A stretch of 64,000 bases of DNA from NCBI GenBank assembly GCA_964016885.1, contig OZ024740.1:226858001-226922000 (forward strand), written 5' to 3'. The notes under the pieces were generated by a model that was not told where the DNA came from, did no database searches, and was given only the letters and a program-made list of their open reading frames with translations. Both the position numbers and the translations under genes were made by a program. Positions 1 to 51,743 of the stretch are shown here, one piece after another (position 1 is the stretch's first letter; every line of letters starts with the position of its first letter). The stretch comes from Eledone cirrhosa (lineage: Eukaryota).

Positions 1-2011
1 GAGTGTGTATGCACGTGAGAGTGTGTATGTGTGTGTGTATGTGTACGTGAGGGTGTGGAGCAAAGAGTCAAACAAAAAAATACACTGACAAAAGAGGGAA
101 TTTAGGTTTTAAAATATTTATACAATGCTTGGAATAAATACTTTGCCTGTTGAAAATTAAGTGCAATTGAATTGTGTAGCATAAGCTATTTTTGTTGGTT
201 ATTTCTTTATCGATTTGATCAGAGGTTCCCAAACTTATTTTGTGGCAGAACCATTATTTGTTCCCCTCACTCCAGCATATGTATATTTTATATACAATGA
301 CTACACCCCAAATTTTAGAATGTTTCTGGGTTCTTTTTAATTAATTCTAAGAATTACTGATTTTGAGTGGTCTGAGTGAAGTATACAACATGTGGGATGA
401 GGGAAAGGGACATAAATGAGTCAAGAGTACTTGAGTGTAGGAGGCATATGACTGGCCAACTCTATAGAACAATATTTATATTTCAAAGGGATTAGAAAAA
501 TACTTTCCCAAATCTGTTCCATAATCTGCTAAATCAGTGCCCTATTTTGCTAAATAGTTGATGAATAAGGGGATTTGATATTTTTACTCAGTAAGACAGT
601 ATATTATGGATGTTAGAGAATTGGCTAATGATGTTATTGTCATGGTCTGTTACAAGAACTTGAAGTAAACATATTGTTTAAGGGTTTATTTCTCAAAGAA
701 AATTTTAGAAAACCACAGACACTAATCTTTAACATTATATCAGCAAAAGAAAAGAAAAATGTTTTTCTTTATTTGCACACAATAGCTGTTTATGACAGTC
801 CCAAATTTTCCATAATAAAAGTTAGACTTATTCCTGAGACATCATAATTTCAAGTGTGTAGTGAATTTTCACTTCACATCTCTCTCTCTCTCTATCTCTC
901 TCTCACCTACCCCATATATATATACAAAGTGTCTGTACAAATGAATGCAAAACGCAGTCAACACATATTGTGGTAGTTATATATATATATATATATAAAC
1001 AATTTGACTTAGTCCCACGTTTCTTTAAGTTTATTATGCATAAAGATATATTTCTAAATCATCAGATGCCTTGGGTTAATGCATCTGACAATTGAGACAT
1101 ATATCTTTACATCCATAGAACTAATATAAATATATATGTAGAGAAAGAGATTAGGATTTTACCAGTTTTAAACTAGTAAGATCATTATTTAACAGAGTAC
1201 TTGAGATTGGCAAGAGCTCAGCTATTGGGCCCCGACTCTCTATAATATATGTGTATGTATGGGTCTTTAGTCTTGACCCTTATCCATGCAGCAACCATCA
1301 AACAAAAGGATAAATAACTATAACCATTGGAAAAGAGAATACTAAGAATACATAAATACGGAAGAGCTTTAGTTTAAAAGCTTAATCTTTTGCATGCTCT
1401 AGATGAAAAAGTATGCAGAGTTTAGGAATAGTTAGGCGATAACAAAAGTTAGTTATTTAGTTATATAGCAGTGAACTTTTGTTGAAAGTCAGTGGAACTT
1501 TAAAACTACATATATTAGCAATTTGTACTAAAGAAGTTCCATTAAAATCAAAGAATTTTTTTTCTGAATCCGAACATTTTATACTCGCTTTTCTTTGTAT
1601 TCCCTTTTCCATGCTCTTTTCTGTCTTTCACTCAATCCAGGTTCTTTTGGATTCAATTTATTTCATTTATTTACTCATTTCTCTTTGTGTCTATTTATTT
1701 TCCTTCTTGTTTTATTTCCAATTTCATTTATATGCCAGTCTTCAAAAGCAACTAAACCTATAATTTGATTAGACCAATCTTAAAAGATAATTTTTACGAA
1801 GTGAATTTTTACTAGATCTTTGTATTCTTCAACTCTGAACATTTCTCACACTCACACAAACATATAGATACACAACACACATATGCTTATACAGATATAA
1901 ACATACATACACATATACATATACATATATAAAGACATATACACACATACATATGTACATTCTCTACACACATATGCTCATACAGATGTACACATAGATA
2001 CACACATAGAT

Positions 2012-2082
<71 letters not shown>

Positions 2083-2267
2083 CACATACATGTACGTTTC
2101 AACTCTGAACATTGCATACATTTACATAAACATATGTACATGCAACATACATACATATGTACATACACAACACACATGCTTACACAGATATACACATATA
2201 CATATATATATATTTATATATATATACATATATACATATGTACATACAGATTTACACTAACATATAC

Positions 2268-2346
<79 letters not shown>

Positions 2347-2837
2347 GTACACACAGACACATGTATATATATATACACACACATACATATATTCATTTCA
2401 TAGGCTAACGAACATATGTATATACACACAAAACATACACTTATACACACATATATATATATATAAATATACAGACACTGCCAGAAAATAGACACATTTA
2501 ACCAGCAATTATTTTTGCCTAATGCAGACTCTTTAACTTTGTTGATCATTTGCCAAATCAAGAATATGATTCAATTTATTTTTAAAAAGTATTTTATTTG
2601 ATTTTATTTAAGCTTTATTTTATATCAATTTATTACTATTTTATTTTTAAAGGACATATATATATATGTATGTATATATATATATGTATGTATGTATATG
2701 TATGTATATATATATATATGTACATATGTATATATATGTATATATATATGTATATATATACATATATACATATATATATATGTACATATGTGTATATATA
2801 TATATATAAGTATATATATATATGTATATATATATAC

Positions 2838-2931
<94 letters not shown>

Positions 2932-3607
2932 ACACTATAAAAGCACACTTTGATAGCTGTGCTGGGTAGGATAGAATAAAGGAAAAGAGAATCTTTGATA
3001 ACATCATTACTATTATTTTCCTTCTTCTTCTTCTTCTTCTTCTTCTTCTTCTTCTTCTTCTTCTTCTTCTTCTTCTTCCACTGCCACCACTATCATCATC
3101 ATCATTGTCACCACCACCACCGACCATAACCAACTCAATTATCATCATTATTCACCACCTCTACTTCCTCCTCTTCCCCACCACCATCACCATCATCATC
3201 ACTCTCATTGTCACAATAGTGAGATACTGATGGTTGTAGTGGTGCTTGCAATTATCCTTTATTTGATTTTTCTCCTTAATCTCTCTATATCTTCTCCTCT
3301 ACTACCACCATAACCACAACAACATTCTCCACTTCCCCTCACGTCTTTTTTCTTTCTATTTATCTCTCAATTCCCCTTTCTTATGATCTTTGTTAATAAA
3401 TTTATTGTATCTCCTCTTATTTAATAAATACCTAAAAATCCAAATTTCAAAAGAAAATGTAAACAAACAATCGATGAGACAAAATAACCAAGCAAAATTA
3501 ATCTTCTGTGAAAATCTTACAGAAAATTTCAAGCAAAATCAAACAAAAAATATTACCATCTTTGTAATATTTGTAGCTTTTAGATTTTTATATTCTTCAA
3601 AAATATT

Positions 3608-3662
<55 letters not shown>

Positions 3663-3698
3663 ATGTGTGGTGTATATATATATATATGAGTGTGTTTG

Positions 3699-3771
<73 letters not shown>

Positions 3772-3772
3772 T

Positions 3773-3804
<32 letters not shown>

Positions 3805-4509
3805 AGTATATATGTATACACACATATATATATATATATAATGTGTGTATGTATTTGTGGGAATATATATATACATATATGTGTGTGTTTCCATTTTGTA
3901 ACTTTGATACTCAGTTCACTTTGTTTTTCTTGTTAGTTGTTTTAAAAATATTTTCCTTTGTTCATTAATTTTTGCATTTATTTCTAAATTTATTTATTTT
4001 ACCCCGTAGTTTTGCTTTAATCAGAAATGAGGTGTAAATATTAGTAAAATTTGCTACGAAGCTTCTAATATCCTTATTTGTTTTTGTACAATTTAAAGCC
4101 ATTAACTTCAAGACCCAAAATAATATTTGAAATGTTCTCCATTTAGTTGAAGCCAAAATTAATTGTTGCCACATAAACCATGATTATGATCTGATTATGC
4201 TACAGGCATATTTGTGATCTTTGTGAAGGCATGCTGTCTGGTGGTGAAGGTGTTGAGCTTGTAATTGTATGACCACAGGTTTGATTCCCAGACTGGCTAG
4301 CTCATTGTGTCCTTGAGCTAGGCACTTCCTTTCACATTGTTCTAATTCACTGAACTGTATAAGAGTTCAAACTGCAGTTAGTGGTTAATATTATGATGAG
4401 CTGATGTCCCAGCCAGGAGCCATTTTTTTTTTTATCTCAGTCACTTAATGCCACATGAAACCAAGGTACTGACTGATATTGATGCTTCATAGGACTATCA
4501 ATCCATGCT

Positions 4510-9750: not shown

Positions 9751-11553
9751 TGTGATATATATATGTGTGTATGTATATACATATCATACCCATCTGTTCT
9801 ATTTGTACCCCTTTTGAATACACATCAAAGGAATATGTATCAAAAAGAGAAATGAGGGATTTCTATAAAAGTTAATACTCTTTTTCTTTGAGAATGTTTT
9901 TATTCTTATATATTCAAACACAGATTTATTCAAATCTTCAAACACAAATTATCTTTTTTTTTCTCATTTCTATTATTGAAAATACCAAATAAAAATTATT
10001 AAAAATGATGCTTTATTAAATATTTTTATCTTTTTCAGTAAAAGTTAAGGACTACTCATTTTATAATAATGGAATTTGATATGTTACTTCTGCAATAGTT
10101 TAAAGTATAATAATCCTTTGAGTAGGAAATATTTGGTATTATTTTCTCAGACAGGATAATTCTATAGAATTTGATTTCTTTCTTAGATGTGGAAACAGAT
10201 TAAGCCATTCTCCCCAATACCCTTTTCCATACTTTTATGACAGTGAAATAATTCCATGGATTTATCTTTAAATATAGCTTTAAGTTAAAGTGTATATAAA
10301 ATAAAGCATTTATTCAAAAGCATTTAGCTATATGTATAGTTTTATTTGGAAAAGATTGATAATAGTTTGAGGGATGTGAACTAAAATTCACCCCAAATAT
10401 CGGAACAAAAGAAAAAGTCCTAATTGAAGAGTGTTGTTAAATACTAAGAAAGAGCCAAGTTGATTACTTCTGTCTATGGAAATGGGACATATTGGCTTTG
10501 TAACATCTCATACCACTGTCAACTACTGATTATACTTTCTTTACTGCTTTATCATTCTCATCATTGTCATTATTTTCCACTCATTCACTTTCTTGTGCTA
10601 GCATGGTTGAAATGGGTCTCTTTAATTGGTTTGCTCAACTTAGTCATGTTTTAAGCTATTCACTCTATCAATCCCATATCTCTAAAATTGGTCCTAATTG
10701 CCTGATTCCATGTTTTTGCAAGCCAACTGCAACTCTAATTGCCTCTGACCAGCAAACAATGATGTTTGTTTGCCCAGTTCACATTATCTGCTCTTGTCAG
10801 ATACTCATTGAATTGCCATCTATTTTTTCTCTCTTCTACAAATATCACTTGATCAGACCTAATGCCTCCAAATTTACTGAATGTCTAACAAATTATATTC
10901 ATCTTATTTTACATTAAACATTGCTGGGATTTTCAATGCCCTAGTACTATTCTATAATACTACGGTTGGGAAAATATATTTAATGAGTTCCTTGTTGACA
11001 TGTTTCAAAAGTGTATTTACATAAACCAGTCATATTTTTAAATAATCTGTCTATACTTTTATATAACAATCTATGTACATAAACTGAACAAACATTTACA
11101 TATGTAAACGATTTAGAGTTTTAATTAAAGTAAAGTACTTATTTACTAAATCAATCTCAAGTTATATCTTTATATAAATTAGCTACAACTAATTTATAAA
11201 GCAACTTATATACATCAATTCATTCTAAATAAACAAGAAAATAGTGAGAAAAGAACATAAAAGATAATATTTCTAATCTTTGAAATAGATAAAATATTTT
11301 GTTTAGAAACTGACTCGCATTATCTGGGAAATATTTTGCTAATGATTCCCAGTCCCATGCAAGCTGGCAATTGGCCCAGTCCAGTTGAACGATGTAGGCC
11401 TTCCCAAATCTGGTCACTATTTGTAAGCAGAGTATACTGTCATTTAGAAGTACAATATTTGTCTTATAGTTTGCATGATACATCTTTTGGATGCTCTGGG
11501 ATGGATCATCAGTGATGTCCCTGAGGTTGTAGAGAGTTTTGAATCTTTCAACA

Positions 11554-11636
11554 TCAGACACATTTTCCAAGCTGATCTAGCTGGGGGTGATCAAATTCTC
11601 GCTGGTATCTCAGCAGCAACAAGCAGCGGGCCTGTC
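11554..11636 (-). CDS. Candidate terminal coding exon, (G)QARCLLLLRYQREFDHPQLDQLGKCV* in phase 1 (phase 0 would give DRPAACCC*)
   Basis: Acceptor ttgtctttatccaatag|; sharp GC step at the boundary; microsatellite-free surroundings about 9900-13100. Frame and strand uncertain. Confidence 0.4.
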
Positions 11637-24459: not shown

Positions 24460-24542
24460 TTAAAGCCGAGCTTCTCTGTAAGATTGGAGCATTGGCGGCC
24501 CATCTGAGTAGAGAGCCCCGCAAGGTTGGGTGGCTGTTGCAG
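24460..24542 (-). CDS. Candidate exon, (A)ATATQPCGALYSDGPPMLQSYREARL*
   Basis: Conspicuous GC-rich non-repetitive island 24436-24548 beginning at CAGCAG; upstream sequence is purine-rich, so the acceptor is poor. Confidence 0.25.
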
Positions 24543-25485
24543 CTGCTGTTTTTTCTATATTTCCCTATTTTTATTTCCTTTTGTTTCCCCACCTTTTTTT
24601 ATCTTCCTAAAAAGGTTTTGTTTTGTTTTGTTTTGCTTTTGAATAAATATTTTCGAAGTTATTATGTTGTCTGTAACAATTCATCCAACCCATGCTAGCC
24701 TGAAAAATAGGGATGTAAAATGCTGCTGTTGATGATGATTATAATGATATTTCATTTCTATATATTGAGGAGCTTATATCATTGACAAATCATATATATT
24801 TACTTGAATTCTATAAAATAAACACAGACACACAAACACAGCCACCTTATTAAAAATTGGAAGTAAAACAGCAGGAAAGCAGTTGAGCTTTCTGTAATGT
24901 TATTTATGCTTCAGATGTCAGGAAATCACTGTGAAATATATATATTTTACATATCATTGATTAGCTCACAGTGGGCTTTACATGAAGCATTAAGAAGACC
25001 AGGATATCTCTATGTTACAGTACACCTCAGCTAACAAATACAAAGCAATCAACTATTTAATGTACACATTTTAGATACAGATGGCAGCACTTATGCAAGC
25101 ATATAGGTCATGTTATATTTATCATGCTATCCCATTTGTGAAAGCAAACCCAATTGTAAAAATAAACTTCCTATAAATATATATAGTATAGGATTATTTT
25201 TTTTTTCCTGTCATTTATTTTTTTTTTTTCCTTCTATAAAAATAACCGACTGAGCCTTCAGGGCAAGAAGAAATATTTGTTATCATTGCCCATATTATAT
25301 ATTTATTTATTATTGTCATAATCATCATTATCATCACCATATCATCATTATTATTATTACTACTACTATTACTATCATGACTACCACCATCATCATCATC
25401 ATTGTCATCATTATTTCTTTCACATCTTGTTTTCCTGCAGTTTTGTTTCTTGTACAAACACGCATACAAACACACACACTATCAC

Positions 25486-31010: not shown

Positions 31011-31055
31011 ATTCAATATATTAATAAATGAAAACTATATTTATAAAACCATAAT

Positions 31056-31120
31056 TATTTTATTATATATATTTCAAGGGTAACCAAGGCAATTTTGGTG
31101 CGCTTTCATCAGATAAAATA
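31056..31120 (-). ncRNA. Minimal type-I hammerhead ribozyme fold
   Basis: Minus strand reads TATTTTAT-CTGATGA-aagcgcaccaa(aattgcc)ttggttaccctt-GAAA-TATATA-TA-ATAAAATA; all core nucleotides present, stem I 8 bp, palindromic stem III. Confidence 0.75.
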
Positions 31121-31191
31121 CAAAATATGTTTTATAAATGTTGACATACCCGTAGAAAACCAACCTTGACGGTTGAAGGTTCACTGGATAG

Positions 31192-31227
<36 letters not shown>

Positions 31228-31458
31228 CTCTATATACTCTATTACTGTATTATGTGTTCCAGCCAATAGGCTGAGGCTATGCTGGGGCACTGCCATATAT
31301 ATATATATACATATATATGACAAAAGTTTTAGTATATATCTGAAAATGAATGCAAAATATATGTAAATAGTCTACCTTTCTCTCTCCCCCTCTCTCTCTT
31401 TACACACACACACTTACATATCATCATCATCGTTTAATAATAATAATAATAATAATTA

Positions 31459-31905
31459 AGGTGGTATGGGATTTTAGGATACAGACAGACAAGAAATTAG
31501 AACACAATAGGCCTGACCTGGTGGTTTTGGACAAGGAAAAAAGATTGTGCCTGATTGTAGATGTAGCCTGCCCATTTGACATGGGAGTGCAAGAAAAGGA
31601 GAGGGAGAAAATTAACCGATACCAGGATTTAAAGTGGGAGTTAAAAAGGATTTGGAACTGCTATGAAATCAAGGTCGTCCCGATTGTCATAGGCGCACTA
31701 GGTACTATCTCAAAGAGTTTCCAAGGATGGTTAAAAAAGATTAGTCCAGCCCTGCTTTTTGGAACACTTCAAAAGGCATGCTTGCTGGGAACAGCAAGAA
31801 CCCTCCGATACGTCCGGAATGTCTGAGGCTGCAGGTAGTGGCTTGATATTCATTTCAACAAACTTTCCAGTTAAATAACATCAATGACTGAGACTCAAAG
31901 AACAA
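31459..31905 (+). mobile_element. R4/Dong-clade non-LTR retrotransposon 3' end (RLE endonuclease, ORF to 31826) in (AAT)n
   Basis: WDFRIQTD..NRPDLVV..IVDVACP..EKINRYQDL..VPIVIGALG..LQKACLLGT; (TAA)n on both sides. Confidence 0.92.
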
Positions 31906-35134: not shown

Positions 35135-35223
35135 TCAGTTTGAGGACACGTTCTTATCTCCTTCCCATGGGTCTTGAAGGCCCTGAAAAGGGTTATAATG
35201 GACATTGCCTATTCCTCCTTGTC
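35135..35223 (-). CDS. Candidate terminal coding exon, (G)QGGIGNVHYNPFQGLQDPWEGDKNVSSN*
   Basis: Strong acceptor ttttttttactgtttag|; only phase 1 gives a long open frame; GC-elevated complex sequence; AATAAA on minus about 90 nt past the stop (35042-47). Confidence 0.55.
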
Positions 35224-38290: not shown

Positions 38291-38794
38291 AACAAAAATA
38301 TGTGATAAATGTAAGATCATGGAAATTTTAAAACATCAGATCATCAGATAAAATATCTCATAGAAGTTCTACATTCTGAATATATACACTCCAAGGATTT
38401 TTGCAGAATTGGTATGAAACTAATGAGTTTGGTTCAATAGATTACTGGTGTTACTTTATCAACTCAAGATAAATGAAAAGTAAAAAATGGTTTGGGCAGG
38501 AAGATGTAACACCCCCCCCCCCCCTCCTCATTGTCCAACGGGGCCCTGTGCTTAATCACACCTAAGCACAATAGTAAATCCATCACTACTAAAGAGTTAT
38601 AACTTAATGCCACATTGTAGTTTGTTCAACACATTGACAATTCTGTCAGTGGGAAGAAAATAATAACAAAAAAATTAACATGGTAATTTTATATTTGTAA
38701 TCTTCAATCATGTGATATTTTAGAATCTTAAGTTCTATTTAATTACCCAAATACACACACAAACACGCATACACACACAAACACACACACACAT

Positions 38795-45604: not shown

Positions 45605-45643
<39 letters not shown>

Positions 45644-45821
45644 TACATATATACATATATAGGAGGTGCGTTTTATTGTAGTACAATAAAGCAATGCAGA
45701 TATCGGATAAGAAGCACTCTACAATTTGTAGGACTGGAGTATACATAATATATACATATATATATGTTGATTTAAAACTGCACTATTCACAAGTGTTTTT
45801 AACCTTCATATCATGTCTTCC

Positions 45822-45892
45822 TATTTTATCTGATGAAAACACAAATGTTATTGCATGATGATATTTGTTTTTGAAATGCGCATAATAAAATA
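45822..45892 (+). ncRNA. Minimal type-I hammerhead ribozyme fold (Penelope/retrozyme-like)
   Basis: Stem I TATTTTAT (45822-29) / ATAAAATA (45885-92); CTGATGA 45830-36; 36-nt stem II hairpin 45837-72 (about 15 pairs incl. G.U, one mismatch); GAAA 45873-76; palindromic stem III TGCGCA; UH = TA 45883-84. Confidence 0.8.
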
Positions 45893-45940
45893 CATGGAAC
45901 TCTTTTAACCATCTTTTGATCTTATATATTACATATATAC

Positions 45941-51288: not shown

Positions 51289-51743
51289 CAAAAGTAAATT
51301 GAAATGATAATATCTGGATTTCATTGTTCTGTAAAAGCTCAATGGAAGTAAGGTTTGAATATATATATATATACATTGTTATACTTTGGGAGGGTCATGT
51401 TGCCAATAAAAACACATGCACCTATTGGTTTTCACTTCAATTTATTATAGATTTCTGGTTGGGGGTAGGTTGGTTGGTACAATAACTGGAAGGTTGTTTA
51501 TATATTGTCAAAGCTCTTTCGTCACACATTCTGTGACCTCCTCAGTGACTAGGTTATTTATTTTTTGTGTCTCTCCATTGTTCTGTCCTACACCATTTTG
51601 TTTTTTCAGATAATAAATCTTGCATAACAAATTCAAAAACGAATTATATATATATGTGTGTGTATATATATATATAGTGTTGAAACAGCAAAAGCTCAGC
51701 CATCAAGCCTCAACTCTCTATAATAATATAAACACACACACAC

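Follow-up and report, generated by a model that had tools for sequence, protein, structure and literature searches.

A hammerhead motif in a solo terminal repeat of a putative Hydra-clade Penelope-like retrotransposon of Eledone cirrhosa

Does a hammerhead motif that lies on the minus strand between two candidate last exons act on a host transcript, or does it belong to a mobile element? The question is raised by positions 31120 to 31056 of a 64,000-nt stretch of Eledone cirrhosa DNA (assembly GCA_964016885.1, contig OZ024740.1), the whole of which is here called the window. An earlier note, made from the letters alone, had described at this place a CTGATGA...GAAA-N6-TA scaffold between the arms of stem I, and had suggested that its cleavage could bias the choice between last exons at 35223 and 24542. 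We consider it highly probable, from sequence comparison and predicted folding, that the motif is the hammerhead of a Hydra-clade Penelope-like element (PLE) within a ~180-bp solo terminal repeat, and that this copy is likely inert. The motif itself was confirmed letter for letter on the minus strand, every part of the scaffold being found where it had been described:

31056..31120, minus strand: type I hammerhead motif with an 8-bp stem I, a CUGAUGA/GAAA/UA core, a 30-nt stem II region and an 8-nt palindromic stem III
31113..31120, minus strand: stem I 5' strand, pairing with 31063-31056
31112-31106, minus strand: CTGATGA core box
31076..31105, minus strand: stem II region of 30 nt, with 3 bp, an unpaired C at 31102 (a family-wide feature) and then more pairs; a G>A change at 31081 breaks pair II.6
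31075-31072, minus strand: GAAA core box
31071-31066, minus strand: hexamer TATATA
31065..31072, minus strand: 8-nt AU palindrome (stem III), with a predicted intermolecular duplex of -3.2 kcal/mol and an intramolecular pairing probability of 0.001
31065-31064, minus strand: TA
31056..31064, minus strand: H17 (31064) and stem I 3' strand (31063-31056), with an AATAAA hexamer straddling the cut site

The copy carries the type I core in full (CUGANGA, GAAA and UH), and its cut is predicted between 31064 and 31063. The three helices, the closing position of stem I and covariation in the family also conform to type I, with stem III predicted to form only between molecules. No Rfam hammerhead model matched at its gathering score, nor at E<=10 (0 of 19 rows). 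A type I descriptor found two matches in the 64-kb window, where shuffled sequence averaged 0.05, 0.005 and 0.0 matches for the three stringencies applied; none of 200 dinucleotide shuffles of the window yielded two matches.

The motif is also one of very many. A 15-mer spanning stem I and the core has 45,251 exact matches in the 3.0-Gb genome against 7 for its reversed control, the 3' half of the hammerhead has 48,438 (control, 120), and a 28-mer just downstream of the motif, from families A and D, has 43,456 (control, 0); motif density in the genome is about one per 60-70 kb. Matches to the 15-mer that lack the rest of the hammerhead, at 38355 (minus strand) in the window and in locus L008, are either chance or very old remnants. 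The motif at 31056-31120 sits in the following context:

31011..31192, minus strand: solo 5'-truncated pseudo-LTR (pLTR), short-end form without tail, assigned to Hydra-clade Penelope-like element family A
31193..31230, no strand: (TA)n microsatellite at the 5' junction, a typical Hydra target according to section 11 of PMC8557442
30808..31008, minus strand: 5'-truncated 3' fragment of a non-LTR retrotransposon adjoining the pLTR 3' end, 92% to a 395-aa frame in L080

The pLTR begins at the family's common 5' breakpoint and ends at its short 3' end, and the 29 nearest copies fetched are 94-98% identical to it. Read depth over the repeat is very high when summed (three runs, one sample). The 395-aa frame that resembles the adjoining fragment matches RVT_1 at E 1e-11. 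Nearby, at 31371-31823 (plus strand) and beside a (TAA)n run, there is a 151-aa frame similar to the nuclease region at the C terminus of a site-specific non-LTR element; it matches, at 87%, a frame in L050 for which a weak zf-RVT match was obtained. We presume that the R4/Dong label applies to it.

The parent of family A was found by walking longer nearest copies, among which L089 reaches 5' through ~1.2 kb of AT-rich DNA into a GIY-YIG-like frame. A search with this frame returned 51,445 first-look candidates, 150 of which were scored. Selection of 16 long loci relied on the endonuclease alone and was guided mainly by the presence of long open frames. The family A motif, whole or with one altered part, lies in sense 1.3-1.65 kb downstream of the endonuclease at 10 of these 16 loci and 175 nt downstream at one; four have an inverted hammerhead copy upstream, and L138, also among the 16, holds a core-mutated copy. 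In L137, a direct hammerhead copy precedes by 245 nt a 743-aa frame (P0001). Complete pLTR-ORF-pLTR units exist, and pLTRs with the hammerhead occur as direct or inverted repeats in L137, L142, L145, L150, L293 and L294. A Pfam search of the genome for GIY-YIG led to PLEs with other hammerhead families and not to this parent.

P0001 and its relatives display RWR/RWK, DKT, GLYRDD, CxCX5C and a GIY-YIG domain without internal cysteines, then CxxC and CxH. RWR/RWI with DKT occurs in P0001 and in the frame of L291, discussed below, and RWK with DKT in most homologues; P0001 is degenerate at the reverse transcriptase (RT) aspartates and partly lacks the linker, both of which sister copies keep. CCHH is absent, and in the relatives of P0001 and in L291 the CxxC and CxH lie near a conserved E and N. 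YRDD together with GIY-YIG-like motifs marks the element as an endonuclease-positive (EN+) PLE. The predicted RT structure (pLDDT 84.5) has reverse transcriptases as its best Foldseek matches, and telomerases fill 6 of the top 10 places. Homologues carry PF26215 and PF00078, and PF01541 in 1 of 18 members; Pfam recognized nothing on the element ORFs themselves, save in 1 of 18 members in one family search, and a sequence-profile search of the PDB returned nothing useful for the element protein.

By its motifs, and not by a tree with reference elements, the parent is a Penelope-like retrotransposon of the Hydra clade, the clade of C-terminal EN+ PLEs that includes Hydra-1_Obim and its hammerhead (Craig et al. 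2021, PMC8557442). Section 11 of that article gives RWK-like, DKT and CxCX5C motifs, lack of CCHH and (TA)n targets among the features of the clade; the elements described here share these, including insertion into (TA)n in the copies examined, as well as CxxC/CxH around the conserved E and N, a hammerhead near the 3' end, inverted 5'-truncated copies and an optional tail. Neptune and Naiad assignments were ruled out by domain order and motifs. Compared with published Hydra elements, as presented in the parts of the article drawn on here, the hammerhead sequence is different (Hydra-1_Obim and the File S2 rows compared), stem III consists of a perfect, loopless 8-nt palindrome, a 1x1 mismatch is fixed in stem II, the 3' UTR spans ~1.0-1.6 kb (longer in family A than in family B), the tail is ~90 nt rather than 30-40, and copies number in the tens of thousands. 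The units, at ~3.5 kb or more, also depart from the generally short length of the clade (<3 kb), a typical but not defining trait.

The window contains a second hammerhead, of a second lineage:

45762..45937, plus strand: solo pLTR assigned to a second Hydra lineage (family B), with a hammerhead at 45822-45892 and the palindrome ATGCGCAT
45609..45754, minus strand: inverted 5'-truncated family B fragment, consisting of the tail only, without hammerhead

The motif at 45822 (plus strand) has the same 8-bp stem I and the hexamer TGCGCA in place of TATATA, as the earlier note had read from the letters. In family B the motif is found 0.9-1.07 kb downstream of an endonuclease that shares 37-46% identity with P0001, and at one locus a family C motif is placed upstream of a frame with 41-55% identity. 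When the family B endonuclease was used as query, 11 new loci were obtained, eight of them with a family B motif downstream, and five longer family B loci were examined, including L291 and L293. The 809-aa frame of L291 contains all the Hydra motifs and is 47% identical to P0001; L293 has a hammerhead-ORF-hammerhead arrangement with 3.55 kb between the hammerheads, plus an inverted copy. Judged by these comparisons, the two window motifs come from two Hydra lineages whose proteins are only ~47% identical. Many family B endonucleases are 95-98% identical, and this lineage therefore looks younger than family A.

Several observations adjoin this subject. The L291 frame (1463-3889, plus strand; G000:C4 near 165.88 Mb) runs without a stop and is followed by its hammerhead. 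In L123, a B-like motif follows by 121 nt a frame with 84% identity and may represent a nested insertion. A third hammerhead-like motif in the window, at 51507-51549 (minus strand), is of an unrelated family with a 4-bp stem I, a CTGAGGA core and another palindrome, 6 nt long, which a single mismatch sets apart from that of a sister copy in L187. At least 10 further hammerhead families, with differing stems and palindromes of 2-8 nt, were encountered (L031-L075, L082, L137, L166, L187, L189, L229 and others), some of them beside GIY-YIG frames.

The earlier note had argued from the two window motifs that selection maintained the fold in the parent elements. We compared 112 distinct motifs, admitting only those whose core was intact and in which 7 or all 8 of the stem I pairs were present, a filter that biases the set to intact copies. 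Stem II has the same plan in all six (sub)families, namely 3 bp, an unpaired position and further pairs; position 4 is paired in none of the 112 motifs and has C on its 5' side in 111. Four pairs (II.2, II.3, II.5 and II.6) are of A-U type in some families and of G-C type in others, and stem III itself is swapped between families (AUAUAUAU to AUGCGCAU). Among the first 100 matches to the 3' half, 94 have self-complementary hexamers by hand count (54 TGCGCA, 22 TATGTA, 13 TATATA and 11 others among the 100). For 13 hand-picked representatives, whose relatedness inflates all measures of covariation, 97.9% of cells are paired against 92.1% in shuffles (0 of 500 equal) and 24 cells show two-sided change against 9.5; such change was found in five of six tested pairs of stem II and two of four of stem III, but the count of pairs with two-sided change is not significant (7 versus 5.3 shuffled, 67 of 500). 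Stem I shows no two-sided change, only A-to-G wobbles, in both the 112 motifs and the 13 representatives. Selection on the fold in the parents is thus supported by two lineages ~47% identical and by compensatory changes in stems II and III, but stem I has been kept as sequence too. The hexamer over the cut site is AATAAA in 91 of the 112 motifs, AATGAA in 11 and AATAGA in 6, the last two of which we take to be poly(A) signal variants; a general rule that AATAAA follows every hammerhead was rejected, since the other families vary and mostly lack the overlap.

How well, then, does the copy at 31056-31120 retain the fold? Of 180 sites in the 31011-31192 unit, 6 depart from the family majority; one of these, the G>A in pair II.6, lies in stem II and leaves it at -2.1 kcal/mol, where the commonest sequence of the family has -6.7. 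In prediction the hammerhead is not the minimum-free-energy (MFE) fold, stem I having a probability of ~0.08 for the motif alone and 0.02 within 210 nt of context, and shuffles reach an MFE just as good (z = -0.43); the commonest family form folds better in prediction, and these energy models omit tertiary contacts and help from protein. The swapped dimer of this copy has a predicted -12.8 kcal/mol versus -17.5 for an alternative cofold, while the family B dimer is near its own minimum (-32.7 versus -33.3 kcal/mol). A palindromic stem III implies that a dimer partner is needed, and the window supplies none: no second compatible motif lies on the minus strand of the 64 kb, the A and B palindromes being incompatible (+5.7 kcal/mol) and the A and D types compatible (-3.2). 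The earlier description of stem II as still pairing is qualified in that stem II of this copy pairs less well than the family form; stem III is predicted to pair only between molecules. Weighing against an inert copy, the core, stem I and palindrome are intact (0 of 33 sites changed versus 6 of 147 elsewhere), a comparison that is uninformative at Fisher p = 0.59. Also on that side, across 24 family A copies not picked by the core, a set of rows that includes one locus entered twice, singleton changes amount to 5 of 790 in the core, stem I and hexamer against 55 of 3182 elsewhere (p = 0.02), a deficit that could stem either from many source lineages or from weak selection once the copies had inserted.

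A plausible route to such copies begins with the parent transcript, whose two hammerheads, present as direct repeats, would base-pair by way of the 8-nt palindromes, probably with help from the element's protein, and would be cut after the sites equivalent to 31064. New copies would arise by target-primed reverse transcription into (TA)n on RNA that is for the most part uncut, with internal initiation either at the short end or ~90 nt further; synthesis would often stop at one 5' breakpoint and so generate tens of thousands of solo pLTRs. Selection on the fold would have acted in the replicating lineages, with an inserted copy drifting afterwards. Among 74 copies picked by the downstream 28-mer, 69 retain the 5' half of the hammerhead and only two have a junction near the cut site, which argues that templates are mostly uncut; no pile-up of copy 5' ends at the cut site was seen among the loci examined. 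The same 74 copies have two recurrent 3' ends, 47 short and 27 ~90 nt longer, both running into (TA)n. The 5' breakpoint, ~72 nt before stem I (-95 to -65), accounts for 22 of 40 matches in nearest-relative loci, with only five extending further, and for 6 of 28 in loci not picked by their 5' part; it could reflect a transcription start or microhomology with the target. These features agree with the Poseidon element PAc, for which the part of PMC11167929 considered here describes an uncut template, internal initiation in vitro and a hammerhead that needs protein to cut. Inverted pLTR pairs (L209, L215, L220, L228/L229, L264/L265 and L272/L273) have one arm with the ~90-nt tail and the other short-ended, a regular asymmetry that bears on second-strand priming.

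Three other explanations of the locus deserve weighing. That the motif is a chance match in AT-rich DNA might be suggested by a GC of ~31%, by the all-A/T composition of stem I and the palindrome and by an MFE no better than shuffles, but the shuffled windows, the genome-wide excess of the 15-mer over its control and the covariation reduce this to a negligible probability and already refute it. A larger claim is that of a co-opted intronic ribozyme in a minus-strand pre-mRNA, with cleavage biasing the choice of two last exons. The intact core, stem I and palindrome would suit such a role, a partner in trans could come from many transcripts bearing AUAUAUAU or AUAUGUAU (-3.2 kcal/mol), and amniote intronic hammerheads have been suggested to affect pre-mRNA processing, although definitive proof is described as absent in the part consulted of a review among PMC6765202, PMC13282606 and PMC8967140. 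Both candidate exons, however, are dispersed repeats. The 24542 piece has 39 other places at 82-90% and the 35223 piece 39 at 68-80% (40 candidates scored for each); the former belongs to an 85-bp, GC-richer dispersed repeat at 24465-24549, SINE-like in size and with 557 first-look candidates, and its acceptor has no pyrimidine tract. No host exon was recognized in 264 kb (the window and 100 kb on each side); the search, which could miss small exons, scanned for splice sites and for GC content and sequence complexity, took in the ORFs of 20 flanking stretches of 10 kb each, and applied Pfam to 25 of the 90 candidate frames. At a density of one motif per 60-70 kb, any two distant points should have a copy between them, and strand and position therefore carry no weight. 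Additionally, stem II is weakened, the hammerhead is not the predicted fold, the minus strand of the window offers no compatible second motif, and PLE hammerheads cleave poorly even as dimers according to the portion of PMC4209133 used here. The last-exon proposal of the earlier note is not supported by these results, and co-option appears very unlikely. A 118-aa stop-free frame at 11223-11576 (minus strand) lies in non-repeat-looking DNA and has no Pfam match and no clear splice acceptor.

The remaining explanation concerns the solo pLTRs as a population, which might be a self-propagating, non-autonomous family (mini-element or retrozyme-like) with its own pLTR promoter, mobilized in trans, rather than dead truncations. 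It would be in keeping with the fixed 5' start in nearest-relative loci, the two fixed 3' ends and the lower singleton rate in the core. Yet internal initiation on full-length RNA predicts fixed ends too, the breakpoint holds a TAT microhomology to the (TA)n target and is the start of only 6 of 28 matches in loci not picked by the 5' part, and the fetched loci contain no retrozyme-type tandem direct arrays, their pairs being mostly inverted. We therefore regard a non-autonomous family as improbable and retain truncated reverse transcription from a parent element as the preferred account.

A more ambitious interpretation of the conserved features, which we put forward as a rather unlikely one, joins three proposals: that the palindromes are a lineage code, that the stem I hairpin hides AAUAAA, and that the stem II C serves as a tertiary or protein contact. 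The AU-type palindromes (A, C and D) may be mutually compatible and the GC-type (B) incompatible with them, such that hammerheads may dimerize and cut only inside their own lineage, and the solo pLTRs, tens of thousands in number, could through their transcripts affect their own family in trans. On the same interpretation, stem I would keep its sequence between lineages whose proteins share 47% identity on account of a second function, as a hairpin hiding a poly(A) signal that cleavage splits. In a literature search of incomplete coverage, nothing was found on family A, lineage-specific palindromes or AAUAAA straddling the cut site.

Comparison with other systems, in each case with the parts of the sources consulted, helps to define what is shared and what is distinctive. 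With the metazoan PLE pLTR hammerheads of Cervera and de la Pena (2014, PMC4209133), the present ones share a minimal/type I topology, many solo copies, palindromic positions 15.2-16.2 and loop 3 with predicted use as dimers, opposite-strand pairs 100-700 bp apart, and several consensus families per genome with covariation. They differ in a nearly invariant 8-bp stem I (4-5 bp there), in an A-U rather than the usual G-C at pair 10.1-11.1, and in lacking, in the register used, the single extra nucleotide after A9. PAc Poseidon of Anolis (Frangieh et al. 2024, PMC11167929) likewise has two discrete 3' ends defining a tail, AT-rich targets and copies spanning the uncut hammerhead; however, it belongs to another clade, and its ORF starts inside the hammerhead rather than ~250 nt downstream. 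Non-LTR retrozymes (bioRxiv 10.64898/2026.07.22.740005) are similarly non-coding and pLTR-related with a type I hammerhead, but consist of tandem direct repeats with at least two hammerheads, whereas the 31056-31120 copy is a dispersed monomer, single in the window.

Hammerheads in Penelope pLTRs, those of octopus Hydra elements included, are already known from published work. The single copy at 31056-31120 matters little, and hammerhead matches every 60-70 kb in such genomes carry no implication of host regulation. The family, in contrast, is a useful natural data set, and its additions are modest and testable at the family level: a palindrome swap, an invariant stem I, a fixed stem II mismatch and a very high copy number. 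It bears on the role of hammerheads in endonuclease-positive Penelope elements, a question raised in the portions considered of PMC8557442 and PMC11167929. Long open frames occur in at least two Hydra lineages of this genome, and these lineages, with their tens of thousands of copies and natural palindrome swap, make the questions of dimer specificity and of the uncut template directly testable.
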